Virus record (IMG/VR): IMGVR_UViG_3300046513_000210
Coordinates: 1 to 41,769 of that record
DNA: 41,769 nucleotides
Origin: a virus
Reading direction: 5' to 3' (one strand)
Positions 2,976-35,427 of this stretch are shown piece by piece. Position 1 is the stretch's first letter; every line of letters starts with the position of its first letter. The notes below the pieces were generated by a model, which had not been told where the DNA came from, searched no databases, and was given only the letters and a program-made list of their open reading frames with translations. Position numbers and translations under genes: made by a program.

Positions 2976-5886
2976 TTACGAGCCTCCAGATTGATCCGCC
3001 GGGCTGGCTTTCTTTCGCGATTTCCTGCTGCGCGCCGCGGCGCGCGACGTCCGCATAAGCCTGACCAAGCGCCTGCGAATCCTGCGGAGTTGCACCAGAG
3101 TCCGCGCTTTGAATGGCGAACGATTGCTGGATAACCACACCAGGTGCGGACGCGGCCCCGCCGGATCCTGCAGATGAACCGACGAAACCGCCATCGGCAT
3201 AGCCTTTGCCGTTTTTGTTGAGATGTTCGAGGTAGCGCCGCATACCGGGCTGCTGAACCACTTCCTTCCGGATCACCACTTCGCCGCCGTGAACAACCCC
3301 TTTTGGCTCAAACTTCCCACCATCCCCGGTGTACCCACCATCGGAGAAGCCGTAGGCACTGGTGTAACCAGCGGCGGTGCTGCCGGCTGATGTTGGTGCC
3401 GCGCCCCCACCGCCGAATGCTGAGCCGATCGCACTACCCGCAACGCTGGCAAATACATTCGAAGCTGCCGACTGCAAGGCCATCTTGGCGATCATCTTCG
3501 CGAAGCTGGTCGCGACATCCTTGAAGGTCATGTCGGCGCCGAAGGCCCACTCGACAGCCGAATCTGTGAGGCCGTCGTACAGAGAGCTGAATGCCTGTCT
3601 CGTTTGGCTGGTCAGGTCTCGGGCGTTGTCGACGTAATTATTGAAAGCATCCGAAGCGCCATCGACCCAGCTTCCCTGGGCTTCGTCCTGACGGTTGTAA
3701 AAGTCCTGCTGCAACACCATCCGTTCGGCCAAGGCCTCCTTGAGCAAACCGGTTTCCTTGTCGTACAGCTCTTTAGTGATGTCGCCGGAGTTCATCTGTT
3801 TTTGCAGGTCAGCCATCTGCTGGTTGTAGTCCTGCTGAATGGCGATATCTTCGCGCAGCCGATCGCGGGCTTTGTCGCCCATGCCGGCGCCGGCCAGTTC
3901 CATATCGAATCCGGAACGGGTCGTGTCGTTGGCTGATTTCAAAGTTGCTGCGAAGGCTGCGGCTTTCGCTTCTTCCTCGTTGGCAACCTTAAGGCTTTGC
4001 AAGGCGTCGATCTCGGCGGCCAGTCCCTGCAAGCGCTTTTGCTGATCAGCATTCAGACCGGTCAGCTTGCCGGACGCAAGTTCGAACCTGAGCTTGTCAG
4101 TCTCGGTGGCCTTTTTCTGCGCAACCGCACTGGTGTCGATGAGCGCGATCTGCCGCTGGTAATCCGTTGCTGCGTCGTCGCCACGTTTCGCCAGCGCCTT
4201 TGCTTCAGTTTCTGCAGCCTTCGAGGCCTGCAAGGCTTCGGCGGCGTATTTTTTCTGAGCGTCGACTGCCGCTTCACTGGCATCCAAGGTTTTCGCCTTG
4301 GAAATCAACAAATCAGCCTCACCCTGCTTGAGGCCTGTTACCAGACCAGCGCCAATTCGCGCTGCCAGCTTGTCAGCGTTGGTCTTCTTGCCGGTGAGCA
4401 GGATCTGTTCATCGAGACCTTTCGCGAGTTCCTTAAACGCCTTCGACTGCTCGACGGAAACCGGAGATTCGATGATGCCGTTAAGCACCTTGATCTGGTT
4501 GCCATAGGCCTCAACCTTTTGGCGAGCCCCGTCAAGTTCAGCCTGTGCAGAAATCAGCGCTTCATTCCACTCTTGCTGACGGGAGTCATCAGGATGGTCA
4601 CGCAACAGTCGCTGGTATTGCGATACGGAGCTTTCCGCATCGATCGCGAGAAGCTGGGCATCCATCAAATCCTTGTTGATGTCCTGCAGCGCACCGGCGG
4701 CCTGATTCTTCGTGAACCCGTCAAACGACTGATTCAACAGGTCGACCTTCTGGCCGAGCGAAGTTGCTGATTCCTCTGCGTCGTCCCCGCTCATAGCGAA
4801 GTACGCCAGCGCGCTCGCCGCCAGCAGAGCGACCCCAACCGGGCCACCCAACAAAGCCATGGCAGCAGAGGCACCCCGAGCAGCTACGCCGACACCAACA
4901 AGTCCGGCAGCGGTTGCGGGAGCAACGCCAGCCATACGAGCCAGCGCCAACTGATAGCGCACCGCTTCCACCTGAGCCATTGCGAACGCCGCGCCGCTAG
5001 CAACTGCACCAGCAGCAAGGCGTGTGGCCAAGACTACCGCCAGCGCTGTCGCCGCCTGAGCGGTAAGGCCCAGTGCAGTTCGTGCCGCCGGAGAACCAAG
5101 CGCGGTGTTCACTGCCTCAATGGCAGAGCGCGCGCCGTCGAGACCGCCCTCGCCAGTCAGAAGTCCGGCAATGGTGTTGCGCAGCGCATCAAGCGAACCG
5201 CCAAACGTGTCGCGAGCAGCGGCTGCCGCACCGCCGTAGGACTCTTCGAGAGCTTTGAGGATGATGCCTTGGGCGCCCGCGATATCGCCGGTCGATTCCA
5301 TGGCTTCAGCCAGTTTCTTCTGATCTTCCGTGAACCTGAAACCCTGCTTACTCAGCGCGCCGAGTCCATCGGTTGGCACATCAAGTGCCCGTCCGATCGT
5401 CTCGGCGGCCTGTACAACACTCGTTCCGGTACGTGCCGCCATGTCTGACGCGGACTTCAATGCCCGAGTAAACTGGTCGCCGACGATGCCGGTGAATGCC
5501 AGAAGCGCGGTCTGCGCCTGGTTGATGTCGCCCCCAGAAAAGGTAGTCGCCTTTTCCATAGCGTCGGCCATGTCGTTCAACTGATCACGGCTGAACCCTG
5601 CGGCCTCTCCGGTGGACTTCAAGACAGCAGCCAACTGAGCCTGTTCTTTTTCTGCGTCGCGAGTTTCCGTGATGAAACTGGTCAGCACGGCGCCAGCGGA
5701 GAAACCAGCGACGGCGCCGGCGATCACCTCGCTAAGTGCGCTCCATGCCAACGAAGCGCCGTTGGCTGCCTCGGCAATTCCTTTGCCGGATTTGCGCGCC
5801 GAAGCTTCGGCCTTTTCGAGCGGAGCGGTGAAACCACCGATACGCGCGATGAGGTCGAGCGTCAGCGTGCCCAGTGTATTGGCCAT
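2965..5886 (-). CDS. Tail tape measure protein
   Basis: 973 aa, Ala/Gly-rich helical protein with hydrophobic central segments. Position is between G-T and M. Confidence 0.92.
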   Translation of the reverse strand: MANTLGTLTLDLIARIGGFTAPLEKAEASARKSGKGIAEAANGASLAWSALSEVIAGAVAGFSAGAVLTSFITETRDAEKEQAQLAAVLKSTGEAAGFSRDQLNDMADAMEKATTFSGGDINQAQTALLAFTGIVGDQFTRALKSASDMAARTGTSVVQAAETIGRALDVPTDGLGALSKQGFRFTEDQKKLAEAMESTGDIAGAQGIILKALEESYGGAAAAARDTFGGSLDALRNTIAGLLTGEGGLDGARSAIEAVNTALGSPAARTALGLTAQAATALAVVLATRLAAGAVASGAAFAMAQVEAVRYQLALARMAGVAPATAAGLVGVGVAARGASAAMALLGGPVGVALLAASALAYFAMSGDDAEESATSLGQKVDLLNQSFDGFTKNQAAGALQDINKDLMDAQLLAIDAESSVSQYQRLLRDHPDDSRQQEWNEALISAQAELDGARQKVEAYGNQIKVLNGIIESPVSVEQSKAFKELAKGLDEQILLTGKKTNADKLAARIGAGLVTGLKQGEADLLISKAKTLDASEAAVDAQKKYAAEALQASKAAETEAKALAKRGDDAATDYQRQIALIDTSAVAQKKATETDKLRFELASGKLTGLNADQQKRLQGLAAEIDALQSLKVANEEEAKAAAFAATLKSANDTTRSGFDMELAGAGMGDKARDRLREDIAIQQDYNQQMADLQKQMNSGDITKELYDKETGLLKEALAERMVLQQDFYNRQDEAQGSWVDGASDAFNNYVDNARDLTSQTRQAFSSLYDGLTDSAVEWAFGADMTFKDVATSFAKMIAKMALQSAASNVFASVAGSAIGSAFGGGGAAPTSAGSTAAGYTSAYGFSDGGYTGDGGKFEPKGVVHGGEVVIRKEVVQQPGMRRYLEHLNKNGKGYADGGFVGSSAGSGGAASAPGVVIQQSFAIQSADSGATPQDSQALGQAYADVARRGAQQEIAKESQPGGSIWRLVNGR

Positions 5887-12843: not shown

Positions 12844-14571
12844 TTATCCAACGATGATAGGTTTTGAAAAGAAGTCGCTTATGTTGCCGCTGTTGTCATT
12901 GGCCAGAATCAGTGCACGGCCGATAGCCATGATCAACGCCACCGCGCCGTCGATCTTGTTGTCGTCACCCTGCTTGATGGGCCGCACGACATCGTCGTTA
13001 CCAGGCATGTTCTTGCCGATCACGTTGGCGATACACCAGGTCATGATCGGGTGACCATCGTGATGGAACCTGCCGGCGGTTATGGCCGCTTCGAGCTCCT
13101 TCATGGGATCGGACATGTTGGTGTAGTTCTGCGTGATCGTGATTGGGCTGAAGCCTTCGTCGTCGAGGTCGTGGCTTAGGCCAGTTGCACCGTGTGGGTC
13201 GATTGGGCATTCGCGAACCGGCGCCTGGTGATTGGCTTCTTTGGTGTCTTCGAAGATTTCGCGGTAATCGATTTCGGCACCGTCGGTTATGTCCAGGTGC
13301 TTTGAGTTGATCCATGCCTGGAACCGCTCGGACATGCGCTTGTTGTCGCTGTCGTAAGCGGTGTCATAGGGCACCCAGAACTTCGGCGCAACGCTGTAGT
13401 AGTGGGTCTTGCCATCTATGACTCGCCAGAACAACCGCGCCCGCGAGTTCATGTCCAGCTTGCGGGCCAAGTCGAAGCCTGCAATCCACTCTTGTCCCTC
13501 GAACTGCTCAAGCGAGAGCGTGGTGTCCTCGCAGGATCTCCAGTCTTCCATGTTAAAGAAGCCGGACTTTGCACTCACCCAGAGGTTGAGGTGCTTCGTT
13601 TTGAAGGTGTTCGCGAAACGCGCTGAGCGGATTGCCCTCGCCTGCTGGCTCTCCAGATACTCTTGGAACACCGAAACCCCGTGGTTGGGGTTGGCCTTGG
13701 CCAGCATCTTTGGATCAGTCCAGTCGTCCCCCTCGTCCAGCGTCCAGATCCAGCCGAACAGCTCTTCGTCAGGAACGGTACCGGCCAGCATCTCCACGAC
13801 TTGCCGGCGCTTGTCGTAGCAGGGGCCTTCGATATCGGCGCCGGCGGTGGTGATGATGAACATCAATGGCTGCCGTCTTGCACCCATACCGGTGAGCATG
13901 GTGTCGTACTGAGCTGATGTAGGGTGTTCGTGGTATTCGTCGACGATGGCGCAGCTCGGTGATGCGCCGTCGCCTGGGTTGCCAATCAGTGGTTCGAATC
14001 GGCTGAAGTCGGACGGGATATTCATGTTCGAGGCGTTGACCTCGATCCCAGCCGCCTGAATGAGCATCGGTGATTTACTAACCATCAGCTTGGCGGGGCG
14101 GAAAACTTCCCAAGCCTGTTTCTCCGTAGTGGCTCCCGCATATACCTCAGCGCCGAACTCACCGTCGGCAACAAACATGCTGATGCCCACACCGCCGGCG
14201 ACCACTGACTTTCCGTTTTTGCGTGGCACTTCCCAGTAGCTTTCACGGAATCGGCGGTGTCCGCCCTTCTTCTTCACCCAACCGAACGTCACGGCCAGGC
14301 CAAAAAGCTGCCATGGCTCCAGAGTTATCAGCTGACGCTTGAATGCCCACTCACCTTTGGTGTGCGGTAGCAACTGCATAAGCTTAAGCTTTTTCTCTGC
14401 CTTGGCCGGGTCAAACTTGAAACGAAACCCGCGCTTGCGACTGGCGGCAAGGTCGTCGAAGTGCCGCTGAATCGCTTGGTGAATGTAACGGCAGGCCGGC
14501 ACCTTTCCACGGAGCAATGACCGACCCCACGCCATTGCCTTGTCGACGTTGGGGTGGGCGGATTTGGTCAT
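12844..14571 (-). CDS. Terminase large subunit
   Basis: 575 aa. Walker-A-like VPRKNGKS, and DEYHEH / nuclease-region motifs. Confidence 0.92.
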
Positions 14572-15848: not shown

Positions 15849-16187
15849 TTAAGGCGCTTGCCGCTCGACGGCTTCGTTGACCTTCTCCGCTGCCTTGCTC
15901 GCGGTATCGGCGGCATGGACTGCTGAGTTCGAGGCTTCCTGCACTTTCACCGCTGCATCCTGCGTCTTCTCGGCCAAGCTGTTGAGGCGAACGTCGCGCT
16001 TACCCAGTGCTGCGTCGTAGGCTGCGCGAACCTCGGCGAGCTGCTTCGTCTGCTCACTGCTGGCTGACCACACGCCAGCCTGGTAACCAAGGATCAGACC
16101 GCCTGCCAGCAGTAGCGCAGCGATCAACCATATCTCGGCCCGTCGCCACCAGCGACGAGCAATGAATTCCATAGCGCATCTGTCCAT
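15849..16187 (-). CDS. Membrane-anchored coiled-coil protein (predicted N-in, C-out)
   Basis: RRWWRR is followed by the TM segment IWLIAALLLAGGLILGY and then a helical Ala/Lys/Glu-rich region. ATGA overlap with the upstream gene. Confidence 0.75.
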   Translation of the reverse strand: MDRCAMEFIARRWWRRAEIWLIAALLLAGGLILGYQAGVWSASSEQTKQLAEVRAAYDAALGKRDVRLNSLAEKTQDAAVKVQEASNSAVHAADTASKAAEKVNEAVERQAP

Positions 16188-16558
16188 CAGCTGATGCCTC
16201 CCAGTTTGGTACGCAGGCGGGCGATTTCTTCGCTCTGCGAGGTAACCGTTGCGGTGAGCTGTGCGACCTGACTGGTGAGGGCTTCGATCTTCCCTTCCAT
16301 TCGCCCAACTGCTGCGGCGAGCTCGTTGCGCTCCTTGGCAAACTGGTCAGCCCGAGCTTCAGCCTCCTTTCGTGCGACACGCTCGGAGTCCAGCAGCTCA
16401 TTCAGCCGGCGAAGCGTGAAGATGTCGGCGTTATCCATCGCCCTGTCTGCAGCATCCTTCGAAAGGAATTTACGCAACCAAAGGAAGGCTGCCAGCAACA
16501 CGGTTCCGGTACCGCCCAGCCAAGTAGCCGTGCCCGGGCCGAGGTCAGTAGGATCCAT
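16187..16558 (-). CDS. Membrane-anchored coiled-coil protein (predicted N-out, C-in)
   Basis: Acidic N-terminus, TM segment WLGGTGTVLLAAFLWL, then RKFLSK and a heptad-like helix. GGAG RBS. It is the first gene after the late terminator. Confidence 0.75.
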   Translation of the reverse strand: MDPTDLGPGTATWLGGTGTVLLAAFLWLRKFLSKDAADRAMDNADIFTLRRLNELLDSERVARKEAEARADQFAKERNELAAAVGRMEGKIEALTSQVAQLTATVTSQSEEIARLRTKLGGIS

Positions 16559-16570
16559 CCGATACTCCAG

Positions 16571-16600
16571 AAACGAAAAAGCCCCGCACAGTGGCGGGGC
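16571..16600 (-). terminator. tR'-like intrinsic terminator downstream of the late promoter
   Basis: Minus strand reads GCCCCGC-CACTGT-GCGGGGC followed by TTTTTCGTTTC. Confidence 0.8.
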
Positions 16601-16651
16601 TCAGAATTATTAGTCGTCTCTCATAACGCGCAAGATCGACATGATGGGGCT

Positions 16652-16680
16652 AATTTATGATCATTCCGCCACTACGTCAA
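16652..16680 (-). promoter_or_regulatory. Late promoter (PR'-like): TTGACG, 17-bp spacer, TAAATT
   Basis: Hexamers and spacer were counted on the minus strand. The -35 overlaps the stop of the upstream gene. A terminator follows ~50 nt after the predicted start, giving a lambda 6S-RNA-like layout. Confidence 0.65.
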
Positions 16681-17240
16681 GCGACGTCTATGAAGATCTG
16701 TTCCCGGTCGAATATCTCAGTGGCGTGGATCACCGCGGCCTCTTCCAGTGACTCCAAGCGCTTGGCGATGCCGGTCTTCCAGCGACGACGGGTTGACTCT
16801 GGCTTACCTTCCACGTCCCAACTGTTCATGTCGTAGAACTCGGCAGGCAGCACGATCATGTCGGTGGAGCGCTTGCCCACCTGAACGCCTTTCAGCTTCG
16901 GTATGGCCCAGGCAGTCAGCGCCTTATAGATGAACACCTGAGGCGCCGGAGAAACCATGCGAGCGACAAGACGGCCAATGGCGCCGACCTTGTTGGCCTT
17001 ATGAGTCGAGTACTTCGCCACCAGCACATCCCACTGCGCAGCGTCGAGCTGACGGTGCAGCAGCGCGTACAGGCAGCAGTCATAGTCGAACTTGTCGCGC
17101 ACTGACAACGAACTGCCGGTACCGCCTTGGCGAAGGTCGGCATCAATCAGCTTTTGCCACGACTGCTTGGTGCTGTTGTCGATGTTGTCGGCGGCGAGCA
17201 CGCGCACCAGGGTACCCATCACGTCCTTATACATACCCAT
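16677..17240 (-). CDS. Hypothetical protein in the Q (late antiterminator) position
   Basis: 187 aa from ATG 17240. It is the last gene of the PR operon, directly upstream of the promoter-plus-terminator pair. No motif was recognised. Confidence 0.8.
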   Translation of the reverse strand: MGMYKDVMGTLVRVLAADNIDNSTKQSWQKLIDADLRQGGTGSSLSVRDKFDYDCCLYALLHRQLDAAQWDVLVAKYSTHKANKVGAIGRLVARMVSPAPQVFIYKALTAWAIPKLKGVQVGKRSTDMIVLPAEFYDMNSWDVEGKPESTRRRWKTGIAKRLESLEEAAVIHATEIFDREQIFIDVA

Positions 17241-17242
17241 GC

Positions 17243-17557
17243 TCAATCCCCTTTGTAAGACGAGCCACCAGGCCCGCGATGGTTGTTCTCTTGGTATTGA
17301 GCGACGACCCCGTCGACCTTTACCGGCAGCGCTGCAATGTGGCGCCCATGGCGGATCAGCATGCCGAGCTGAAAGATCAGGTCATCGACTGGCAACGGCT
17401 CAAGCGTTTCGGCTCGAACCAAGCCGGAGGCGTGGCAACCAATGCAGGCGAGTTGATAGAACACTCCCTTTATCAAGCCTTTGCCAGCACAGGACGGGCA
17501 ATCAGAGAGCGGGATCTGGCGGCGCACAAAGGCGGGGCCATGCTGCTTTTTATCCAT
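17243..17557 (-). CDS. Small protein with two DnaJ-type CxxCxGxG zinc-finger motifs
   Basis: CPSCAGKG and CIGCHASG. Start taken at MDKKQHG (ATG 17557), preceded by AGGCGAGG. Confidence 0.7.
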   Translation of the reverse strand: MDKKQHGPAFVRRQIPLSDCPSCAGKGLIKGVFYQLACIGCHASGLVRAETLEPLPVDDLIFQLGMLIRHGRHIAALPVKVDGVVAQYQENNHRGPGGSSYKGD

Positions 17558-17588
17558 TTTTAAACCTCGCCTTTTATGGTTTCGTGAT

Positions 17589-18854
17589 TTAGCTAGAAGC
17601 CGCGCCATTCAGGGCCTCGGCGGCATTCTGCGAATTTCCGTTTCTAGTCATGGTCGAGCGGTGAATCAGGCTGAAGCCTTTCCCGTCTAACCATTCGTGC
17701 CACTTGCTCAGGGCTTCGCGCTTGAGCAGTTCGGCGGATGTGTGGATGTAGGTCTGCACGTTGCGGGTCATCGTGTGGTTCACCAGCATCTCGCCGATGA
17801 GGAAGTCCACGCCGAGGTCAGTCCAACCGGTGCGGGCAACCTTGCGCAGGTCGTGACTTGTCCACTCACCCTGTCCCAACCGGGTGAATACGGCGCAGGC
17901 CTGGCTGTCACTGAGGCATCCACCGCCACGCGCAGGGAACACGAAAGCGCCCTTGTAGCCCTTCGCTGCCTGCCAATCTCGGTACCGTTCCAGCAGCGAG
18001 CAGACCTGATGCGTCAGTGGCAGTCGATGCTCGCAACGGGTCTTCGTGTTCTCTGCTGGGATGAACCACTCGCCCTGCTCACCCAGGGTCAGGTGCGACC
18101 ACCGAGCCATCCTTGATTCGCCAACGCGCGTGCCGTGACAGAGCATCATCAATGCCAGCATGCAGTCCTGCGGGTCACGGTCAAAGCCAACGGCCAGTTG
18201 CTCGATCACGTCCTCGAGCTGCACTGCGCGCAACCGGGATGGCTTCGGCTGGATTTTGGCCTTGGTGAAGTCGGTGAACTTGAAACCCGCGATTGGATTC
18301 AAGCTGATCATGCGCAGCTTCTCGGCCTGACGGAACGCCACCACCAGCACACCCCACATCAGGCGAACGTAGGACAGCGAGAACTCGGCCTGCATCGGCC
18401 ACATCAGTTGCTTGTCCAGGGTGAATCGGTCGACCTCCTCCACCAGCAGCTCACCAAGCCGTGGCTTCAAGTGGCAGGCAATGATTGACGTGTTGGTCGA
18501 CCGGCGCTTTGCCGACAAGCTTCGGTCAACGGCCTGACGCGCCGTAAACCAGTCGAGTAACTGGCCGACTGTCTGCAATGTACCCGCAGCGGCTGAGGCC
18601 TTCGGGTCGGCTGCCAAGCGCTCGCGGATCTTCGGCAGCGCATTGATCAATCCTTTCACGGGCAGCTCCGGGAAGCCGGCGATCTTCTCCCACTTCTTGC
18701 CAACCACCAGGTGCCACGTGCCACGATCGCGGTTTTTGTGGAACCGGAAATAAACGCCCGGATATCGCGCGTCCCGCATGTCACGGATGCCAGTGTTGGC
18801 CGATTGGCGACGGATTTCGGCATCCGAAAACGTGGTCAGCAGACTTTGGCTCAT
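17589..18854 (-). CDS. Tyrosine recombinase (P4-integrase-like), the second one in the genome
   Basis: Catalytic signature in order: HGTRVGE (R), ENTKTR (K), SHDLRKVAR (H-x-x-R), LVNH (H), QTYIH (Y). ATGA overlap with rusA. Confidence 0.85.
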   Translation of the reverse strand: MSQSLLTTFSDAEIRRQSANTGIRDMRDARYPGVYFRFHKNRDRGTWHLVVGKKWEKIAGFPELPVKGLINALPKIRERLAADPKASAAAGTLQTVGQLLDWFTARQAVDRSLSAKRRSTNTSIIACHLKPRLGELLVEEVDRFTLDKQLMWPMQAEFSLSYVRLMWGVLVVAFRQAEKLRMISLNPIAGFKFTDFTKAKIQPKPSRLRAVQLEDVIEQLAVGFDRDPQDCMLALMMLCHGTRVGESRMARWSHLTLGEQGEWFIPAENTKTRCEHRLPLTHQVCSLLERYRDWQAAKGYKGAFVFPARGGGCLSDSQACAVFTRLGQGEWTSHDLRKVARTGWTDLGVDFLIGEMLVNHTMTRNVQTYIHTSAELLKREALSKWHEWLDGKGFSLIHRSTMTRNGNSQNAAEALNGAASS

Positions 18855-19222
18855 TGCGTATTCGACTCCGGGTCGATCGGGTAGTCCCGGATATGCACGC
18901 GCACCAAACCACCCGGTACCGGCTCCCCAATGTTTATCGTTGTAACGAAGTTCTTATCGTCGATTCCTAACCCGTCAGCGATTCCGTCCCTGCCAGCTTT
19001 GAAGCGCGCCAGTAGGTTGTCATCGTCGTAGGAGCGGCGATTAGGCGGGCAGAACGTTACCCAGAAGTACTTCTTGCCACTGAGACGCGGCGCATCCAGC
19101 GCCAGCGCGACCAGTCCGCAGAGACGGCGATAAGCTTTCGCGTGCTTGTGTTTTTGTCGCCAGTGAACACGCGCATTCGGACTCAATTCCTTGGGCGGCC
19201 ACGGCAGCGTCATGTCGATCAT
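18851..19222 (-). CDS. rusA: Holliday junction resolvase RusA
   Basis: LPWPPKELSPNARVHW...YDDDNLLARFKAGRDGIADGLGIDDKNF matches the RusA family pattern. Confidence 0.88.
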   Translation of the reverse strand: MIDMTLPWPPKELSPNARVHWRQKHKHAKAYRRLCGLVALALDAPRLSGKKYFWVTFCPPNRRSYDDDNLLARFKAGRDGIADGLGIDDKNFVTTINIGEPVPGGLVRVHIRDYPIDPESNTQ

Positions 19223-19521: not shown

Positions 19522-19721
19522 GCAGGCTTACCCGTGATGACATCGACGACTTCGTAGGTACCTGGCCACATCCACGCGCCGTAGCGCTTCGCCATCGCCG
19601 AATCAGCGAACAACGCCAGCGCATGATCCGGAGGTGAGCTCAAGTCGACCTTGAACGAGCAGCAAAACACCGCGAAACGGTAGGTATCGATCTCAGGGAC
19701 AGCCAGACGCCGATCAGCCAT
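19512..19721 (-). CDS. Hypothetical protein (69 aa from the internal ATG)
   Basis: MADRRLAVPEIDTYRF... Lies in the operon between the P-like and YbcO-like genes, with short overlaps on both sides. Confidence 0.6.
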   Translation of the reverse strand: MADRRLAVPEIDTYRFAVFCCSFKVDLSSPPDHALALFADSAMAKRYGAWMWPGTYEVVDVITGKPACE

Positions 19722-20397
19722 GCGAACCTCCAAGCGCACTGCGCAGTTTTGCCAAGGCATCCTTTCCGACTTCAGGTGTTACCTTCGCCGCGGCACGAGC
19801 TGGTAATGCCTTCGGCATAGCTTGCAGCGGGAGCCCTGACAGTAAGCGGCGAATGGTGATCGTGTAGTTGCGCTCAAACAGTTTCAGGCTTAGCGCGGTG
19901 TCGAGCTTGTTAAGGCTCTCAAAACCGCACTCTTTGGCCGTATGCCATACCGCGTCATGCGACCACTGTCCCTGCCCGGCCATGCTCGGATGAGCGTTGC
20001 GGCAGGCTTCCCGGTGCGCGGAGGCGATTGGCGGCAGGCCAAGCATTTCGGGAGTTGGTTTGCACCACTCGATGAACTGCCCCGGGCTTGGGATGAAGTC
20101 GCCCGACTGCTTGCGCACCTGCGCCATCCCGAAATCGATCTGCCCCTGAGTGCTGATTCCTTCTTCGAGAAATGCCTGGTACCACTGCCTCTTCGACGCT
20201 TGATAGGTCTCTTTGTCTGGCCACGCTTGGCGCCAAGCCGAACGGATAGATCGAAGCTCCCCGAACAGGTTGTTGATGGCGGACACCAAAGTGCTGCTGT
20301 CGTCGCTGACCGCCGGTGAAGCATCCTCGGCAGCTATGAATTCGCCTGACTGAGCTTTTTCCCACAAGCCGTTGGCAACCACGGAAACAGCCTTCAT
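19714..20397 (-). CDS. Replication protein, lambda P-like (helicase loader)
   Basis: ...KRQWYQAFLEEGI...GDFIPSPGQFIEWCKP resembles the Phage_lambda_P pattern. ATGA overlap with the O-like gene when started at ATG 20397. Confidence 0.7.
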   Translation of the reverse strand: MKAVSVVANGLWEKAQSGEFIAAEDASPAVSDDSSTLVSAINNLFGELRSIRSAWRQAWPDKETYQASKRQWYQAFLEEGISTQGQIDFGMAQVRKQSGDFIPSPGQFIEWCKPTPEMLGLPPIASAHREACRNAHPSMAGQGQWSHDAVWHTAKECGFESLNKLDTALSLKLFERNYTITIRRLLSGLPLQAMPKALPARAAAKVTPEVGKDALAKLRSALGGSHG

Positions 20398-21143
20398 GGT
20401 TTCACCCCGCTCTGCCATCCAGTGTCGTTGTCGTCGAAATCAGTAACGGGTGCATTCTTCGGCTTGAATTGAGCGACGTTGGTCGCCGCTGAGCGGGCCT
20501 TGTCGTTGCACACCCACTTGACCAGCATCTGCACCCACTCGGCCTGAGTGTTCACCTGCCCGCGGGGTTCATAGTGCGCGGTGAACGCGCGGCGCACTTC
20601 ATCGGTGAACATGGTGGGTGCCACGCCAGAATGGGTGGCATAGGTCTTCAGCAACTTGGCGTCAGGTTGCCAGTCGAGGGTCATTTCGCTCGGCATGCGA
20701 GGGTCTACTGGCTCATGCGCAGAGAGAGGTTCTTTATTCTTCTCTTTCTCTTCTTTAGGTAACGCTCCGCTAACGTTCGCAGCGTTACTTTTACCGTTAC
20801 TGGCTTTGTGATTTGCCACCCGCTTTGCGGTGAGAAGCCTGTTTTTAGCGGTCTTGCCGTTATGGCGCTCGAAGTGAGGAAGACTGATTACCCCGCCCTC
20901 CTCAATCATCCATGCGACAGACTTCATGTATTCACAGAAACCGGTAACGCCAACCAAGCGGTCGAGTAACTTTTTGCTAACGCTCGGAGCGTTACCATTC
21001 TCTGTTTGTTGATCGAACCACCCCCACACACGCATCAACTTGCCGACAACCGCATCCGGGTCGATATCAGCCAAGTCAGCGATCTGGCAGACCTCAGGCT
21101 TGTCCAGGGTGGTAAGTTCGAATTTGATCCAATCGCCGGCCAT
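20394..21143 (-). CDS. Replication organiser (O-like) with a DnaT-like C-terminal region
   Basis: MAGDWIKFELTTLDKPEV... N-domain, a low-complexity Lys/Glu linker that contains the iterons, and a C-terminal MTLDWQPD...AEWVQMLVKW region. Confidence 0.7.
   Translation of the reverse strand: MAGDWIKFELTTLDKPEVCQIADLADIDPDAVVGKLMRVWGWFDQQTENGNAPSVSKKLLDRLVGVTGFCEYMKSVAWMIEEGGVISLPHFERHNGKTAKNRLLTAKRVANHKASNGKSNAANVSGALPKEEKEKNKEPLSAHEPVDPRMPSEMTLDWQPDAKLLKTYATHSGVAPTMFTDEVRRAFTAHYEPRGQVNTQAEWVQMLVKWVCNDKARSAATNVAQFKPKNAPVTDFDDNDTGWQSGVKP
20731..20994. repeat. Putative origin: polypyrimidine AT-rich tract plus GTAACGCT/AGCGTTAC iterons inside the O-like gene
   Basis: ttctttattcttctctttctcttcttta at 20731-20758. 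TAACG-type repeats at 20759, 20769, 20781, 20793 and 20944. Perfect palindrome TAACGCTC-G-GAGCGTTA at 20978-20994. Confidence 0.5.
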
Positions 21144-21907
21144 TACACGCGCCCCTTCAACTGATACTGCGCCCACAGCCCGGCAACCCACTCGACGCCC
21201 TTTGGCGTAAACCGAGCCTGACTGAAAGCATGACCGTTAGATTCGCTAGTTCCGGTTTTCACTTCGAAACGCCCGGCAGCCTGATGATGCTGATAAGGGC
21301 TCAAAACGCCCCCGAGGTAGTACATCACCCGAGAATCGAGAAGCATTTGGCGGAATTGACGCTCGCTGGCATTCAGGAGCTTTGCGACTTGGCGAAAGCC
21401 CATCGAGCCTGATGCCTGAACGTAGTGATCGACGAATGCAGCCTTGGGGGCAGCAATAGCAAGCGCGTGCTGGGCTGCCTGCTGGAGTTCGAACTGTTCA
21501 GCCCAGGCTCGAGCGGCTGCGGCAGGATTTGAAAAATCAGGTAGCGAAGCGAGGACACGAGGCCCTTCCAGTTCCTTGAGCTTTTGCAAAACTGAGCGAC
21601 GAACTGCTTTCGACTCTCGCATGCCCACGAGCATGCATTGATCGAGGGTCAGGTCATAACTGGCCATGTCGACCCGGCTCTGGGGGTGTGCAACAAATTT
21701 GCACTCCCCCAACTCATCGCCGAGTTCGTCTTGAACTCGGATGATGAATTGGTCATTTCTGACTTTCGGCTCGCCAGCGTGAGCGCGCGCTTCGTTCACC
21801 ATATCGCGCAGATCGATGCTAGAAACAGTACGCGACACCGTTTCGGAACCATGAAAACGTGTCGCGACATTTACAGGTGTATTGCTGGGGTTGGGTGAAC
21901 TGTGCAT
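21143..21907 (-). CDS. Rha / KilA-C (ANT) family regulatory or antirepressor-like protein
   Basis: YDLTLDQCMLVGMRESKAVR (Rha-like) and C-terminal FVDHYVQASGSMGFRQVAKLL... (KilAC-like). GGAG RBS. Confidence 0.7.
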   Translation of the reverse strand: MHSSPNPSNTPVNVATRFHGSETVSRTVSSIDLRDMVNEARAHAGEPKVRNDQFIIRVQDELGDELGECKFVAHPQSRVDMASYDLTLDQCMLVGMRESKAVRRSVLQKLKELEGPRVLASLPDFSNPAAAARAWAEQFELQQAAQHALAIAAPKAAFVDHYVQASGSMGFRQVAKLLNASERQFRQMLLDSRVMYYLGGVLSPYQHHQAAGRFEVKTGTSESNGHAFSQARFTPKGVEWVAGLWAQYQLKGRV

Positions 21908-23577: not shown

Positions 23578-23649
23578 AAAGGCATCCCAATACGAAAATG
23601 AAAATATAAAGGCATACCTGTTGACACAAAATAAAGGCAAGCCTATATT
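23578..23649 (+). promoter_or_regulatory. OL region with PL: TTGACA, 17-bp spacer, TATATT
   Basis: Operator copies: AAAGGCATCCCAAT (23578-91), AAAGGCATACCTGT (23608-21), AAAGGCAAGCCTAT (23633-46). The -35 is at 23621-26 and the -10 at 23644-49. Confidence 0.75.
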
Positions 23650-23859: not shown

Positions 23860-24171
23860 ATGAAGCACTCAACAGCAATTGCTCTGCTCGAAATTCACGC
23901 ATCTAACTGCGAGAACAACGCGGTGATTCAAGAGCGCGAAGGTCAGTTCGAAGACGCGGCGAATTGCCGTAGCAACGCAGTCGACTACCGCGCGGCAATC
24001 GCAGAACTGCAGCCCGCTTCTGCACTGTCAGAAGCCTGGAGCGTGAAGATGCAGGCGACAGCGGAAGGAAAGTATGTCGCCACCGGCATCGGTCTCGGTT
24101 TGGGAGAAAGCAGCGGGCAATTTCTAGTCAGCGCCGATCGGTTTGCGACTGCTTCACCACAGGCCGAGTGA
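23860..24171 (+). CDS. 103-aa protein whose C-terminal third is homologous to an internal segment of the J tail-tip protein
   Basis: AWSVKMQATAEGKYVATGIGLGLGESSGQFLVSADRFA versus J MWSVKMQVTSNGQYVAAGIGLGIENTGAGLQSQFLVSADRFA. It is the first ORF after PL/nutL. The RBS is weak. Confidence 0.6.
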   Translation: MKHSTAIALLEIHASNCENNAVIQEREGQFEDAANCRSNAVDYRAAIAELQPASALSEAWSVKMQATAEGKYVATGIGLGLGESSGQFLVSADRFATASPQAE

Positions 24172-25930: not shown

Positions 25931-26134
25931 TTACTTCAATTGCAGCTTCAGATGGGCCAGATAGTTAACGGCGTCTGTTTTTTGCTGGGTGCCAGGTGGG
26001 CCATCACTACCCATCAGCGCCGCATGGGCCTTTTGAAAAACTTTACTCGACACCAGATTCATTTCTGGCGTGTTCAACAAAGCAATCAATAGCTGTTCTA
26101 CAGCGTCAAGCTGGTTTTGGTTCGCCATCTGCAT
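25931..26134 (-). CDS. 67-aa hypothetical protein on the opposite strand, divergent from the methyltransferase genes
   Basis: AAGGAG RBS then ATGCAGATG. Only the last 67 codons of track ORF 25931..26776 lie outside the MTase gene. Locally lower GC. Confidence 0.6.
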   Translation of the reverse strand: MQMANQNQLDAVEQLLIALLNTPEMNLVSSKVFQKAHAALMGSDGPPGTQQKTDAVNYLAHLKLQLK

Positions 26135-26212
26135 CTCCTTGATCCGGCTCCATGCCGGGCCGAACACAAATACCCCACTTCTACGAATCACGCCAGCCGG
26201 CGAGGATCCCCT

Positions 26213-27496
26213 ATGCCACCTACTCACCAGATTCTGGTTGGTGACTGCATTGAAATGATGCGGACGCTGCCAGACAACAGCATCGACAGCGTGGTGACCG
26301 ATCCGCCCTACGGGATCCGATTCATGGGTAAGAGTTGGGACGGGGAAGACATCGAGGCGCGCGCCGCGTACCGCGCCAGTATGCCTTCGCATGCTTCGGC
26401 ATGCGGCCCGAATGGTGGCCACCGCTCGATCGCGGCGGAAGCCGGCAAGTATGATCTGACGCCCGCCGCCATGCGCGCTTTTCAAGCCTTCACGTTGGAA
26501 TGGGCAACCGAGTGCCTGCGTGTACTCAAACCGGGCGGACACCTGCTCTCGTTCGCAGCCGCCCGCACCTATCATCACATGGCGGTCGGCATCGAAATGG
26601 CCGGATTTGAAATTCGCGACCAGATCATGTGGGTGTTCGGCTCGGGCTTTCCCAAGTCCCACAATCTCAAGGGCGAGCATGAAGGCAAAGGCACTGCCCT
26701 GAAGCCTGCGCACGAACCAATCTGCATGGCGCGCAAGCCCTTCCCCGGTACCGTCGCGGACAATGTCGACCTGCACGGCACAGGCGCGCTAAACATCGAC
26801 GCTTGCCGTATCCACGGCGCCGATGCCCTTGCCACCGAGTACTCCCAAAAGCGAATGGCTCCAGGACACGTAGTCAACAACACGGGCGCTTGGAAACAGG
26901 AAGCCCAGTTCACCGGCACGTTGAAAGCTGGCCGCTGGCCCGCGAATCTGATTCACGATGGCAGCTCCGGGGTGGTGGCGATGTTCCCCACTGAAGCCGG
27001 TGCATCAGCGCGCGTTCGCGGCACCGAAACAAGCGCCGCAAGTGTCGGCCAGATTACTGGCCAGCGCGATCGAGTCGCTGGAGCTTTTTACGGAGACAGT
27101 GGCAGCGCTGCCCGGTTCTTCTACTGCGCTAAGACGAGCCGCACCGATCGGCATGAGGGTCTGATCAACCCCGGCGCACAGTTCAAGCAGAGCAACACTT
27201 TGCGCAAGGTCGAAATTACCGAAACAAAGGGCAATAACCATCCGACAGTGAAGCCCACCGATCTTATGGCCTACCTGCTGCGCCTAGTGACCCCGGCCGG
27301 CGGCGTAGTGCTAGATCCATTCATGGGTAGCGGCAGCACCGGCAAGGCTGCGATGCGCGAAGGCTTCCAGTTCATCGGCTGCGAGATAGACGAGCAGTAC
27401 GCGGCGATCGCCCGATCGCGAATCGAGCACGAAATCAACCGCCAGCAAGAACAGCAAGCCGAATCCGACCAGCTCGACCTTTTCGGCACCGCCTGA
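26213..27496 (+). CDS. DNA methyltransferase, N6-adenine/N4-cytosine beta class
   Basis: DPPYG (motif IV) near the N-terminus and FMGSGSTG (motif I) near the C-terminus. Also RWPANLIHD, RFFYCAK and HPTVKP signatures. GAGGA RBS. Confidence 0.9.
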   Translation: MPPTHQILVGDCIEMMRTLPDNSIDSVVTDPPYGIRFMGKSWDGEDIEARAAYRASMPSHASACGPNGGHRSIAAEAGKYDLTPAAMRAFQAFTLEWATECLRVLKPGGHLLSFAAARTYHHMAVGIEMAGFEIRDQIMWVFGSGFPKSHNLKGEHEGKGTALKPAHEPICMARKPFPGTVADNVDLHGTGALNIDACRIHGADALATEYSQKRMAPGHVVNNTGAWKQEAQFTGTLKAGRWPANLIHDGSSGVVAMFPTEAGASARVRGTETSAASVGQITGQRDRVAGAFYGDSGSAARFFYCAKTSRTDRHEGLINPGAQFKQSNTLRKVEITETKGNNHPTVKPTDLMAYLLRLVTPAGGVVLDPFMGSGSTGKAAMREGFQFIGCEIDEQYAAIARSRIEHEINRQQEQQAESDQLDLFGTA

Positions 27497-27549
27497 CCCA
27501 TCCACACCACTCCTAAATGAAACGCTGAATTTACCGGCGAGGATCCTCT

Positions 27550-29355
27550 ATGTCCGCACAACAGAAATTGCCTCAGTTCATCCATGGCCAGCCGAGCATG
27601 GGCCTGCCGTTCGAAAAGGAACTGGTGGTCGACCTGTTCGCCGGCGGCGGGGGCGCCAGCACCGGTATTGCCCGGGCATACCGGGAGCCGGACGTGGCGG
27701 TGAACCACAATCCAATCGCCTTGGCTGTGCATCGCGCCAACCACCCAACGACAGCGCACTACGTGGCTGACGTGTTCGAGGTTGACCCGCGGGAAGCCAC
27801 GGGCGGACAGCCGGTGGCGATCATTTGGGCATCACCGGATTGTCGTCACCACAGCAAGGCCAAGGGCGGCGCGCCGCGCGATCGAGGCGTTCGGGGGTTG
27901 GCCTGGGTGGTGATCCGCTGGCTGTTCGTAACGAAGTCGCGCCTGCTCTTCCTCGAAAACGTTGAAGAGTTCTGCGACTGGGGCCCGATCGACGACGACG
28001 GCCAGCCGATCAAGTCTGAACGCGGCCGCACCTTCAAAGCGTTCATTGCCGCGATCAGCACCGGCCTGCCCGCTGATCATCCGGACATGCAGGAGATCAT
28101 CGACGCGATCGGAGAGTTCGTTCCAGTGGAAGCTCTGGTGCGGGGGCTGGGCTATAACGCTGAGTGGCGGGAGCGAATCGCGGCGAACGCTGGCACCCCG
28201 ACCATCCGCAAGCGCCTTTATCTGGTGGCGCGCAGCGACGGCAAGCCGATCGTTTGGCCGGCGCCGAAGCGTCACAAGCGGCCAGCGGCGAAGCAGTTGC
28301 CATGGCGCTCCGCGGCCGAATGCATCGACTGGAGCAACCTCGGCCGCACGATCTTTCGTGAGAAGCCGATGGCCGAAAACACCATGCGCCGCGTGGCCAA
28401 GGGTTGCTGGCGTCATGTGCTCACCAGTGCGAAGCCTTTCATCGTGCCGATGCGCGGCACCTCATCGGCACACACCAGCACGCACGGCACCGACGAAGCG
28501 CTTTCAACGATCAGCGCGGGCGGCACTCACCACGCGCTGGTGCAGCCCGTTGCGGCGCCCTTCCTCACCGAATGCGCGAATGGATCAGCTCAGCGCAACT
28601 TCGACGTGCAGGAGCCGCTGCGTACGCAGGTCGCTCAAGTCAAAGGGGGTCACTTCGCGATGGCAGCAGCACACATGACCGCGTTCGGGCAAAACGCAGT
28701 GGGCGGCTCACCTGACGATCCAGCGCAGACGGTTATGGCCGGCGCTGCTCGGCACGGCATAGTCACAGCGTTTTTTGAACAGGCCAACGGCGGCTTTTAC
28801 AAAGGCGACGGCCGATCGGCCTACGATCCGATATCGACCATCTGCCAGTCTGGCGCAAATCAGCGCTTGGTGAGCGCTTACCTGGTGAAGTATTACGGCA
28901 ACGAGAAGGACGGTATCTCGCTCAATGAGCCGATGCACACGCTACCGACGAAAGATCGCGTTGCGGTCGTCGAGACGGTGCAGGTGCCCGACACGCTGAC
29001 CCCTGAGCAAATGGAAGGCGCCCGGCGCTGCGCCGCCTTCATGCACAAATACCTGCCGGAGCACTTCAAAGAACCGGCTGAGTTGGTGATGGTCGGCGGC
29101 TATGTGCTGATCGATATCACATTGCGCATGCTGCAACCGCCAGAGCTAAAGGCCGCTCAAGGCTTCGACAAGGACTACATCATCGATCGCGGTCTGTTCG
29201 TCGACCCGGTCACCGGCGCCGAGGAATGGCGCGACATCAAGAAGGTCGATCAGGTGCGGCTGATCGGCAACAGCGTCTGCCCAGACGAAGCTGAAGCATT
29301 GGTCGCCGCCAACGCCGCAGACATTATTGATCTTTATCAGCGGCTCGCCGCATAA
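27550..29355 (+). CDS. DNA (cytosine-5) methyltransferase
   Basis: DLFAGGGGAS (motif I), SPDCRHHS (motif IV Pro-Cys variant), LFLENV (motif VI), AQGF, GNSVCP (motif X). 601 aa. Confidence 0.9.
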   Translation: MSAQQKLPQFIHGQPSMGLPFEKELVVDLFAGGGGASTGIARAYREPDVAVNHNPIALAVHRANHPTTAHYVADVFEVDPREATGGQPVAIIWASPDCRHHSKAKGGAPRDRGVRGLAWVVIRWLFVTKSRLLFLENVEEFCDWGPIDDDGQPIKSERGRTFKAFIAAISTGLPADHPDMQEIIDAIGEFVPVEALVRGLGYNAEWRERIAANAGTPTIRKRLYLVARSDGKPIVWPAPKRHKRPAAKQLPWRSAAECIDWSNLGRTIFREKPMAENTMRRVAKGCWRHVLTSAKPFIVPMRGTSSAHTSTHGTDEALSTISAGGTHHALVQPVAAPFLTECANGSAQRNFDVQEPLRTQVAQVKGGHFAMAAAHMTAFGQNAVGGSPDDPAQTVMAGAARHGIVTAFFEQANGGFYKGDGRSAYDPISTICQSGANQRLVSAYLVKYYGNEKDGISLNEPMHTLPTKDRVAVVETVQVPDTLTPEQMEGARRCAAFMHKYLPEHFKEPAELVMVGGYVLIDITLRMLQPPELKAAQGFDKDYIIDRGLFVDPVTGAEEWRDIKKVDQVRLIGNSVCPDEAEALVAANAADIIDLYQRLAA

Positions 29356-32360: not shown

Positions 32361-32588
32361 ATGCCCGTGATCATGATCACAACCTCAGTCGCGACCGTTT
32401 TTGAAGTGCCTGACGGGGTCGACCTCTCGCAGGTTCGCCGATTAGCGTTATCAGAACTCGGCGATGACGAATGCGCCACCGACACCGTGGCCGTCCAGCA
32501 CGACAACGTCATGAGCCAGATCTATCTCGGAGCCGCCGATCGCAAAACGGTTTCCATCTCGCACAGCGTTGTCGACCCAACCGAATAA
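32361..32588 (+). CDS. Hypothetical protein (75 aa)
   Basis: GAGGA RBS before ATG 32361. Confidence 0.6.
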   Translation: MPVIMITTSVATVFEVPDGVDLSQVRRLALSELGDDECATDTVAVQHDNVMSQIYLGAADRKTVSISHSVVDPTE

Positions 32589-32625
32589 TCACCTTCTGCC
32601 GTCAAGCGCGGCATGGAGCATCATC

Positions 32626-32868
32626 ATGAGCAAAGTCACCCTGGATGAATGGGCGGCGGCCGAGTTCAAGACGCCGCCCAGCCCCAACACGCTCCGCAAA
32701 TGGGCGCGTGAAGGCCGGATCGCGCCGGCGCCGGTGAAGCACGGGCGGAGCTACTATGTAGAATCCCACGCCCATTATCAGGAACCTGACCAGCAGCCGA
32801 TCCGCATTGTCGGCGGCAGCCTGATCAGCAGAATAGAGAGAGCACGCAATGGCGCCCAGGCCGCGTAA
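32626..32868 (+). CDS. xis: Excisionase (lambda Xis family)
   Basis: VTLDEWAAAEFKTPPSPNTLRKWAREGRIAPAPVKHGRSYYV parallels lambda Xis LTLQEWNARQRRPRSLETVRRWVRECRIFPPPVKDGREYLF. Confidence 0.9.
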   Translation: MSKVTLDEWAAAEFKTPPSPNTLRKWAREGRIAPAPVKHGRSYYVESHAHYQEPDQQPIRIVGGSLISRIERARNGAQAA

Positions 32869-33952
32869 CACAGGGTCAAAGGATCTTCCCCCGAATCTCT
32901 ACCGCAAGACTGACGCCCGCAACGGCGTCACTTATTACACCTACCGCGACCCGATCAGTGGTCGCGTGTTTGGTCTGGGCAAAGACAAGGAGGCCGCCAT
33001 TCGCGAGGCCGTTGCCGCCAACCACGCAGACACCATCAAGCCAACACTGACCGAACGCATCAGCACCCCAGCGCCAGCACCGGGCAAGCTGTTCTCGCAA
33101 TGGCTTGATGAATACCGCGAGCTTTTCGCCGAGCGCAAGCTATCCGCTAGCAGCAACAAAAACGTTCGCATGCGGATCAACCGCCTAGAGATTGAATTCG
33201 GCTCAAAGAGAATCAAGGAAATCACAACGATGGATGTGGCCGATTACCTGACAGGTATGGCCAAAGAGGGGAAAGCGCAGATGGCCCGGGCGATGCGCTC
33301 GCTGTTGCGAGACGTATTCGCCGAAGCTCAGGCGAGAGGATGGGCGGACAGCAACCCGGTCGAAGTGACCAAAGCGGCGCGGGTGAACATCAAGCGCGAG
33401 CGGCTGACGCTGGAACTATGGAAGGCAATTTATGCGGAAGCGACGAAACCGTGGCTTCGCCGGGCGATGGAGTTAGCGGTGCTCACTGGCCAGCGCCGCG
33501 ATGATATCGCCTCGATCCTATTCAAGGACGTGCACGACGGCTTCGTACACGTCGTCCAGTCGAAGACTGGCGCGCGACTCCGGATCAGCACTGCACTTCG
33601 CCTGGAGTCAGTCGGGCTTGATCTCGCCACCGTCATCAAACAATGCCGCGATCGCGTTCTGTCACAACACCTGGTGCATCATGCGCAAGCGTCGGGCCGG
33701 GCGAAGGCTGGCCAGCCTGTCGTGCTGGACACACTCAGCTCGGCATTTGCCGAGGCCCGGGACAAAGCCGGCGTCAAGCTGGGGATAACTTTTGGCCGGC
33801 AACCGCCGAGCTTCCACGAACAGCGATCGCTCGCCGCGCGCCTCCACGAAGACGAAGGTCGCGATGCGCAGAAACTGCTCGGTCACCGTTCGGCCGCAAT
33901 GACCGACCTGTATCGAGACAGTCGAGGCGCTGAGTGGATCGACGTGGCATAA
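32849..33952 (+). CDS. int: Integrase (lambda Int family tyrosine recombinase)
   Basis: LPPNLYRK...YRDPISGRVFGLGKDK, LTGQRRDD, QSKTG, FHEQRSLAARL, LLGHRS and DLYRDSRGAEW all parallel lambda Int. Overlaps xis by 20 nt. Confidence 0.93.
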   Translation: MAPRPRNTGSKDLPPNLYRKTDARNGVTYYTYRDPISGRVFGLGKDKEAAIREAVAANHADTIKPTLTERISTPAPAPGKLFSQWLDEYRELFAERKLSASSNKNVRMRINRLEIEFGSKRIKEITTMDVADYLTGMAKEGKAQMARAMRSLLRDVFAEAQARGWADSNPVEVTKAARVNIKRERLTLELWKAIYAEATKPWLRRAMELAVLTGQRRDDIASILFKDVHDGFVHVVQSKTGARLRISTALRLESVGLDLATVIKQCRDRVLSQHLVHHAQASGRAKAGQPVVLDTLSSAFAEARDKAGVKLGITFGRQPPSFHEQRSLAARLHEDEGRDAQKLLGHRSAAMTDLYRDSRGAEWIDVA

Positions 33953-34272: not shown

Positions 34273-34491
34273 GTGAAACGACTTGAAGACCTTACGCTTC
34301 CCCAATCCCTCCAGAGCAAAATCTCCAGCCTCGTACGCAGGGTTGCGGATGCACAGGGTGATGTCGATATCCGCATGGCGGTCGAGCGCGCAGAAGGATT
34401 CGTGGAGGGGCTGGAAGCGGCGCGCTGTTTAACCGATGCCACTATTGAGGCTCTCTTCATCATCATAGAAAGCGTAGCTGAGCGTCATTGA
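34273..34491 (+). CDS. 72-aa acidic helical hypothetical protein next to attP
   Basis: GTG start. Convergent with Rz, with stops overlapping by 7 nt. Moderate third-position GC. The competing minus ORF 34188..34466 looks like junk. Confidence 0.45.
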   Translation: MKRLEDLTLPQSLQSKISSLVRRVADAQGDVDIRMAVERAEGFVEGLEAARCLTDATIEALFIIIESVAERH

Positions 34492-35413: not shown

Positions 35414-35427
35414 CACTTTTCTCCAGA

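Follow-up and report, generated by a model that had tools for sequence, protein, structure and literature searches.

The window analysed here, a stretch of 41,769 nucleotides (nt), covers positions 1 to 41,769 of the virus record IMGVR_UViG_3300046513_000210 in IMG/VR and belongs to a lambdoid phage of Pseudomonas. Three adjacent genes, all on the minus strand, close its early-right (nin) operon; they encode a second tyrosine recombinase of 421 amino acids (aa; 17589-18854), a 104-aa protein with four cysteines (17243-17557), below called the zinc protein, and an all-helical protein of 187 aa in the Q slot (16677-17240). The co-location of the three genes is a real observation and not a chance pattern. 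On balance, we favour reading them as three neighbouring cassettes, each of which can be exchanged alone, where the recombinase would be used for something other than integration and the 187-aa protein would act as the late switch.

Three adjacent genes at the end of the early-right operon

Relatives of the locus were compared in two samples, a viral one of 80 IMG/VR contigs with a recombinase 83-97% identical to that of the window, and a genome one formed by the best 80 of 230 stretches from a single-motif DNA scan of species-representative genomes (53-97% identity, nearly all Pseudomonas), together giving 160 loci. The identities of the three products vary independently. At one locus (L008) the recombinase is 97% identical, the zinc protein 47% and the third gene is of the Q82 type, and at another (L014) the recombinase is 95% identical, the zinc protein 86% and the third gene is of the 187-aa type. 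Identity of the zinc protein to the window copy ranges from 41 to 90% and tracks neither neighbour. The slot of the third gene is occupied, across the 80 species genomes, by the 187-aa family in 44 and by a Q of the Q82 family (PF06530, above threshold) in 32. The genes are also found apart, the zinc protein occurring without the recombinase in phages LESphi3, MD8 and phi2. The 187-aa family occurs in 63 phage records, D3 (orf84), F10 (gp058), PMG1 and JBD44 among them, and only four of the 63 are also found among the top-listed recombinase matches; the four phages just named and about 55 other phage records have the family without the recombinase.

A first-pass annotation of this DNA had put the three genes forward as its best candidate for an undescribed module, and had considered that the recombinase fold might be reused as a late regulator or might drive an inversion or excision switch. 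One late-control module of this kind would fit the fixed order and tight spacing of the genes in the window, the adjacency of recombinase and zinc protein in 76 of the 80 genome loci, where a late regulator comes next, and the existence of one homologue of the 187-aa protein with an N-terminal piece like the tail of the zinc protein. We nevertheless regard it as very improbable, since the recombinase is paired with at least four late-regulator/promoter cassettes and co-varies with none of them, and since its two neighbours each occur without it. In many loci, moreover, variable insertions of 0.2-0.75 kilobases (kb) part the recombinase from the zinc protein, which itself usually abuts the late regulator. 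The six catalytic residues of the recombinase are strictly kept, contrary to a purely DNA-binding role, and a function in late regulation is further disfavoured by phage F10, where a phosphatase replaces the recombinase. As for the inversion switch, no inverted repeats flank the late promoter, nor do any bracket a plausible segment in the window. The annotation had itself allowed that the three genes might not co-occur in related phages and that the 187-aa protein might match a known Q family; the former was largely what we found, and the latter was not.

The zinc protein (phrog_5085, E 3e-35, a family with no assigned function) starts, as its homologues do, at the ATG at 17557, and shows the cysteine pattern C-x2-C-x14-C-x2-C followed by a conserved C-terminal tail, NNxRGxGGxxYxGD. 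It had been described as DnaJ-type with two CxxCxGxG motifs. The first motif, CPSCAGKG, fits exactly, whereas the second, CIGCHASG, is of the form CxxCxxxG; DnaJ has eight cysteines against four here, and DnaJ_CXXCXGXG (PF00684) is matched at E 0.078 with 13.7 bits where 32.7 are required, short of significance, so that the one exact motif is what stands of that label. The small size of the protein and a weak match of its homologue in VW-6S (E 2e-4) recall anti-TRAP (PF15777), with scores far below curated cut-offs; the window protein itself reaches a non-significant 13.0 bits against a cut-off of 32. Homologues with 47-48% identity are present in VW-6S and PseuP_224, and others with 34-37% identity lie between NinG/RusA and Q in the P. 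aeruginosa phages LESphi3, MD8, phi2 and TC7, none of which is among the recombinase matches listed. The 104-aa protein is a separate small zinc-binding nin gene product, whose gene habitually stands immediately before that of the late regulator, whether the recombinase is present or not. In the one homologue of the 187-aa protein mentioned above (P0240), the piece resembling the C-terminal tail of the zinc protein is an N-terminal extension of 21 aa (MKKSHRRGAGGSNDIGDSGEG), which may stem from read-through fusion or from a wrongly placed start site.

The second tyrosine recombinase

That the delayed-early operon contains a second recombinase with an intact active site was borne out, with respect to its coordinates, its PF00589 domain and the six residues that had been named, and so was the ATGA overlap of its start with the rusA stop, on the minus strand. 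PF00589 is matched at E 7e-16, with 58.9 bits where the cut-off is 27.1, and phrog_1, an integrase family, at E 4e-47. The active-site residues R243, K271, H334, R337, H360 and Y369 align with those of the window's own lambda-type Int and of nine syntenic homologues, all invariant, and the R-K-H-R-H-Y set is likewise invariant across 263 unique homologues of 37-97% identity. Conservation of the six residues over such a range suggests that catalysis is under selection, since a pure DNA-binder would be expected to lose some of them. The protein has a three-part layout with an N-terminal part of about 90 aa, a SAM-like core-binding domain (residues ~94-192) and a catalytic domain (~205-385). When the family profile was compared with the PDB, it matched the catalytic domains of XerD and XerC, the closest solved structures by sequence, as well as the core-binding domains 2kkp (E 3e-5) and 2kj5 (E 1e-4) over residues 94-192; a PDB search with the single sequence returned nothing useful, and the N-terminal ~90 aa matched none of the Pfam arm-binding families. 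In the alignment the catalytic tyrosine is followed by a tail, KRxALxxWHxWL, which resembles the tails of P4-type integrases. The product is 5 aa shorter than the 426 aa of its relatives because a CAA codon of theirs is TAA here (17589-17591). By its sequence, the protein is thus predicted to be a complete and catalytically intact tyrosine recombinase, a normal three-domain enzyme. Three other identities were rejected: a protelomerase, as the protein has the length and the active site of an integrase; an integron integrase; and a replication initiator, as cleavage by tyrosine recombinases yields a 5'-OH and provides no primer end.

In all 160 loci the recombinase gene is flanked by the same neighbours and is internal to the prophage, never at its edge, and no prophage of the sample is split beside it. 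On the upstream side come replication genes and then a junction nuclease (RusA, VRR-NUC PF08774 or NinG) or DnaB, most relatives having VRR-NUC, NinG or DnaB where the window has rusA. A close relative is the P. koreensis DSM 16610 prophage, with a recombinase 97% identical to that of the window. More distant members of the clade (36-46% identity) likewise close the early-right operon in other phages: in the P. aeruginosa phages Solano and Hali, Pseudomonas phage PARCL1pr, the Vibrio phages PE002A, VPHZ6, XM1 and K303, and the Aliivibrio phage H905. A separate integrase is encoded elsewhere in the window phage, Solano, VW-6S and XM1. The full records of PARCL1pr and VPHZ6 hold no other annotated integrase and carry ParA-type partition genes, and as far as the records of H905 and K303 were examined there is likewise no other annotated integrase, H905 having ParM and a partition-type protein. 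Phages like K303 appear to stem from the oyster-farm collection that includes a 36-kb circular Vibrio phage-plasmid of the genus TG34 (PMC13230959). In phage F10 (L177, 3223-4217), which is otherwise like Solano in this region, a small open reading frame (ORF) and a NinI-like Ser/Thr phosphatase gene occupy the slot that the recombinase has in Solano and Hali, and all three phages continue with a 94-aa gene and an Orf84-family gene.

This swap suggests that the recombinase is an exchangeable accessory of the nin region, not essential to replication or late control, and its presence at the same operon position in integrating and in plasmid-type phages argues that its job is not chromosomal insertion. 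We infer that it is an accessory enzyme of the early-right operon, unused for integration, with a role in DNA metabolism during infection or lytic growth. As a separate observation, the motif ATC(T/C)ATCAC(A/T)(A/G)(A/G)GGA stands directly 3' of the recombinase gene in four distant phages (L088, L087, L006 and L090), and in H905 (L088, 6220-6380) a 37-nt stretch holding this motif is repeated exactly about 90 nt downstream.

A second integration specificity had been among the roles first proposed, and the recombinase could in principle be a second integrase whose attP lies in another part of the genome or within coding sequence, for instance in its own conserved 3' end. The three-domain layout, the intact active site and the P4-integrase-like C-terminal tail are all compatible with this, as is a conservation of 83-97% amid mosaic surroundings, which is what integrases tied to a conserved attB show; the gene is also the sole annotated recombinase in PARCL1pr and VPHZ6, and suppressed synonymous change at its 3' end could hide a site. 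We consider this quite unlikely, given that the gene is always internal with the same flanks, that the phages lacking another integrase carry ParA or ParM partition genes, and that F10-type phages do without the recombinase. The window holds no non-coding DNA adjoining the gene, which agrees with the initial view that this is not an island with its own att site, and a search for transfer RNA (tRNA) genes, an Rfam search and a T-arm motif search of the window yielded nothing beyond one chance-level 11-mer.

The 3' end of the gene is unusual in itself. Among 78 unique sequences, synonymous codon diversity averages 0.35 over the gene and drops to 0.05-0.17 in its final ~70 codons (17555-17800, minus strand). 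Conservation per base runs past the recombinase stop and the ribosome-binding site as far as the next gene's ATG, beyond which it collapses, and the clade with 53-58% identity has a weaker dip at this end. RNA folding of the block on both strands, compared with shuffled sequences, gave no signal (z scores of -1.2 and -0.8). The constrained block could be a cis element, perhaps the enzyme's own site or an expression signal, and it could also mark a module boundary where homologous exchange is frequent.

Transcribed together with its delayed-early neighbours and distinct from the phage's integrase, the enzyme would interconvert monomers and multimers of circular phage DNA in a site-specific manner, as Cre-lox does for P1. 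Such interconversion would resolve dimers of a plasmid prophage or supply packageable multimers to a cos-type terminase. Resolution of dimers or concatemers had been on the list of roles first suggested and may be what the enzyme does. Since the early-left operon has two methyltransferase genes and no recognisable Red, Erf or RecT, we think monomer/multimer interconversion the most likely of the mechanisms considered, and put it forward as a tentative and rather doubtful proposal. More broadly, the nin-region clade may in some form consist of integrase-derived enzymes that no longer integrate the phage and act in infection or lytic growth, with a site perhaps in the constrained 3' end, shared by integrating lambdoid phages and by Pseudomonas and Vibrio phage-plasmids, and we regard this as plausible, if somewhat short of an even chance.

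Several points weigh against this account of the recombinase. A repeat search of the whole window returned chance-level pairs only and no convincing inverted repeats. No non-coding 14-mer is conserved within 6 kb across 82 loci. The enzyme has an extra N-terminal domain, as arm-binding integrases do, which is absent from the simple resolvases Cre and XerD. A resolvase of a plasmid prophage should be made in the lysogen, whereas the recombinase gene lies in a repressed operon, and high conservation amid mosaic surroundings could point to a conserved host target. Among the 82 loci, the 14-mers shared outside the recombinase gene reflect only coding conservation of the neighbours and terminators. 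The best repeat pair near the gene (17716-17738 and 13495-13517) was rejected as a pair of sites, recombination there disrupting both terL and the recombinase itself.

Action in trans could also be considered, on a host site or on another mobile element such as a satellite, a resident prophage or a defence island. The enzyme is strongly conserved in mosaic phages from many species of Pseudomonas, in keeping with a chromosomal target that is itself conserved, no cis site was found, and the gene is an optional accessory expressed early in infection and on induction. We judge it improbable, as members of the clade are also carried by phages of Vibrio and Aliivibrio, hosts that would not share a Pseudomonas target, and there is no match to a known defence or anti-defence family; defence-system profiles matched neither the recombinase nor the 104-aa and 187-aa proteins.

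The 187-residue protein and the late promoter

The 187-aa protein (phrog_3412, E 1.5e-76, again a family with no assigned function) runs from an ATG at 17240 to 16677 and is encoded by the last gene before the late genes, as is its family in D3 and F10, where the Orf84-family gene again comes last before the lysis and late genes. It was followed, on the minus strand, by a compact promoter cassette, in keeping with the early description of an unclassified protein in the Q position. The late promoter, TTGACG-17-TAAATT (16680-16652, with the spacer TAGTGGCGGAATGATCA), has its -35 element overlapping the stop codon of the 187-aa gene and matches the consensus at 9 of 12 positions. Next come a conserved initial transcribed region (16603-16651; CCCATCATGTCGATCTTGCGCGTTATGAGAGACGAC...), in which a CATCAT hexamer near +1 would be a -10-like pause element, and an intrinsic terminator (16602-16579, within the interval 16570-16602) with a 9-bp (base pair) stem of 7 G-C pairs and then a T run, lying ~43 nt past the presumed start site and 12 nt ahead of the first late gene. 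The spacer element, the hexamer near +1, the short terminated leader and the ~24-kb operon beyond it, which has the endolysin last, together make up the layout of lambda Q.

Leaders were compared in 68 unique sequences downstream of 187-aa family genes with 33-100% protein identity. The series TTGAC, a spacer of 15-18 nt, a -10 hexamer and CCCATC(A/C)TGTC is present in 61 of them, the looser motif [CTA]AT[CA][ACT]TG[TC][CT] in 65, down to 33% protein identity, and a terminator-like GGGCTTT run in all but one (67/68), a median of 58 nt beyond the leader motif. Each regulator type carries its own downstream cassette. The spacer is subtype-specific, with a tandem heptamer in three subtypes (TGGCCGaCTGGCCG, GTGAGCGaCTGAGCG or ATGGCCGcATGGCCG), and four spacer classes follow the protein clades, which is a matter of co-variation and not of binding. 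Proteins of class A (spacer GTGGCGGAATGATC) and class B (TGGCCGACTGGCCG) are 85% identical, and exactly four residues discriminate fully between them, 146, 149, 156 and 159, all placed at the start of a long C-terminal helix in the predicted model. In two relatives (L085, ~4700-4800, and L095, phage D3, 5181-6005) tRNA genes stand directly after the late-promoter terminator, and the window is without them.

A protein collection clustered at 90% holds 765 relatives of the 187-aa protein, all unnamed and none with a Pfam domain, and clustering at 50% leaves only 111 representatives among 1.84 billion proteins. One UniProt homologue is called 'Phage antitermination protein Q', which is a name only and comes with no test. 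A PDB search with single sequences of the family returned nothing useful. Modelling with AlphaFold2 gave a predicted local distance difference test score (pLDDT) of 45.8 from a shallow alignment and, from a more diverse one, a pLDDT of 81.6 with a predicted template modelling (TM) score of 0.77; a Foldseek comparison of the model with BFVD was weak, the best hit being an uncharacterised protein at E 0.004.

We hypothesise that the 187-aa protein would bind the subtype-specific spacer element of the promoter just after its own gene, load onto RNA polymerase held at the conserved sequence near +1, and allow the loaded polymerase to read through the terminator ~45 nt on and then ~24 kb of late genes. 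That it acts in this way like lambda Q, outside any described Q family, we consider probable, both the binding and the antitermination being drawn from the sequence comparisons. The Orf84 family of phage D3 would then be a fourth class of Q-type processive antiterminators, probably a new family, structurally unrelated to the others and reading a tandem-heptamer spacer element. Some results count against this. Neither Pfam nor NCBIfam matched the 187-aa protein or ten of its distant relatives; Foldseek of the model against the PDB gave a best hit of E 1.3 with a TM score of 0.3 and listed no Q entries, and a BFVD entry named Q matches the model at E 1.2; an hhalign comparison with a Q82-type alignment gave a probability of 0.3%; and in the window's own subtype the spacer shows no clear tandem repeat. 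The papers searched contained no experiment on the family.

The protein could instead be a promoter activator or an unrelated nin gene product, with read-through coming from, for example, a leader RNA element. Its lack of likeness to any Q family in sequence or fold would be expected in that case, and the promoter already looks strong alone with its nine consensus positions. The put RNAs of phage HK022 act as RNA, and the conserved leader could do the same. This we find unlikely: the gene and the cassette are always inherited as a pair, the non-transcribed spacer co-varies with residues of the protein, which a mechanism of RNA alone does not predict, the slot otherwise holds genuine Q82-family genes, and a near-consensus promoter with a terminator before the first late gene is the layout of antitermination and not of an activator.

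Genome layout and comparison with known systems

The first 127 nt of the window (1-127) recur unchanged as its last 127 (41643-41769), as expected of a genome of 41642 bp that was assembled as a circle or is terminally redundant. The early-right operon, on the minus strand, starts with genes for a CII-like protein and an antirepressor and continues with the replication initiator (20394-21191), a lambda-P-like helicase loader (19714-20418), a small ORF, the YbcO nuclease (PF07102; 19219-19521) and the rusA-like Holliday-junction resolvase (18851-19222; phrog_34, E 2e-23) that precedes the recombinase. The first late gene encodes a 123-aa product of a holin-like family (16187-16558, minus strand; phrog_2658), and behind it lie HNH, terS and terL, then the genes for head and tail. 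Continuing across the circular junction, the late operon has the endolysin and an Rz-like spanin last, at its distal end (34485-35446, minus strand), adjoining the attP/int region and away from the holin-like gene that follows the late promoter. A lambda-type int and xis besides the second recombinase had been described, and both were found on the plus strand, the excisionase at 32569-32868 (PF07825 Exc, E 4e-31) and Int at 32849-33952 (Arm-DNA-bind_1 E 3e-25, Phage_integrase E 9e-15).

The early-left operon contains the two large DNA methyltransferase genes (26117-29355, plus strand), of 459 and 601 aa, and no recombinase of the Red, Erf or RecT type was recognised among the early-left ORFs scanned. 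A pL-like promoter, TTGACA-17-TATATT, lies at 23621-23649, and the first ORF after it (23860-24171, plus strand, 103 aa) looks like part of the C-terminal region of the J-like tail protein of 1233 aa, with an inverted counterpart at 38271-38386. The likeness consists of ~100 nt of inverted DNA similarity and PHROG tail-fibre matches, and the product might be an early-made receptor-blocking or exclusion protein.

A second 'integrase' gene in a prophage is usually written off as a remnant or as the sign of a nested element, and this one is intact and has a fixed position. Its distribution, with relatives in the 230 stretches of the genome scan (the best 80 nearly all Pseudomonas) and in Vibrio phage-plasmids, suggests a selected, non-integrative use of site-specific recombination in temperate phages. 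Our literature search, with most subscription journals outside its coverage, found no functional study of the Orf84 family or of a recombinase placed mid-operon in a lambdoid phage. The genome paper of PseuP_224 lists a 'site-specific phage integrase' among the replication genes and nothing more (PMC10305613), and a study of P. syringae mutated a 'second integrase' beside attR, which may be a different gene (PMC10107160). For annotation, we propose that the mid-operon gene should not be called the phage's integrase and that the Orf84 family should be labelled as a putative late regulator. The presence of that family in the classic P. aeruginosa phages D3 and F10 offers a system for Q-like control of RNA polymerase by a protein of unrelated fold, with a defined promoter, a leader of ~75 nt and four candidate specificity residues.

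Among known systems, the nin region of E. coli lambdoid prophages such as DLP12, with the order ybcO-rusA-ylcG-quuD, has YbcO, RusA, a small protein and a late regulator in the same succession, and likewise an accessory-gene slot; the difference is the 1.3-kb recombinase gene that here lies between rusA and the small protein, and no such recombinase gene is known from the nin regions of E. coli, nor did the papers searched describe one there. The P4 and CP4-57 integrases (PRK09692) share with the recombinase the three-domain layout, the RKHRHY residues and the C-terminal tail. The match to PRK09692 is nonetheless weak (E 6e-12, with 45 bits where the cut-off is 434), the N-terminal domain has no Pfam arm-binding match, and the gene sits mid-operon instead of at an att edge, in company with another integrase or with partition genes. 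Cre-loxP of P1 and XerCD-dif are alike in another respect, Cre being a phage recombinase with a non-integrative purpose and XerD/XerC giving the closest structures, and relatives of the window enzyme are found in plasmid-type phages; they differ in that no lox- or dif-like site was found here, in the extra N-terminal domain and in the repressed early operon.

For the late switch, the obvious counterpart is Q with pR'-qut-tR' of lambda. In both, the regulator gene is the last of the early-right operon, and a promoter, here at the gene's own stop codon, is followed by a short terminated leader and a long late operon. The Q-binding element of lambda lies in the spacer between -35 and -10, which is also where the protein-specific element lies here. 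The described Q families are Q-lambda (PF03589), Q82 (PF06530) and Q21 (PF06323), and Q82 itself takes the same slot in sister phages of the window. The late leader of lambda is 194 nt long, against ~75 nt in the 187-aa family, and the tandem-heptamer spacer of three subtypes is a further point of difference from lambda, in a system where antitermination is what we infer from the arrangement of gene, promoter and terminator.

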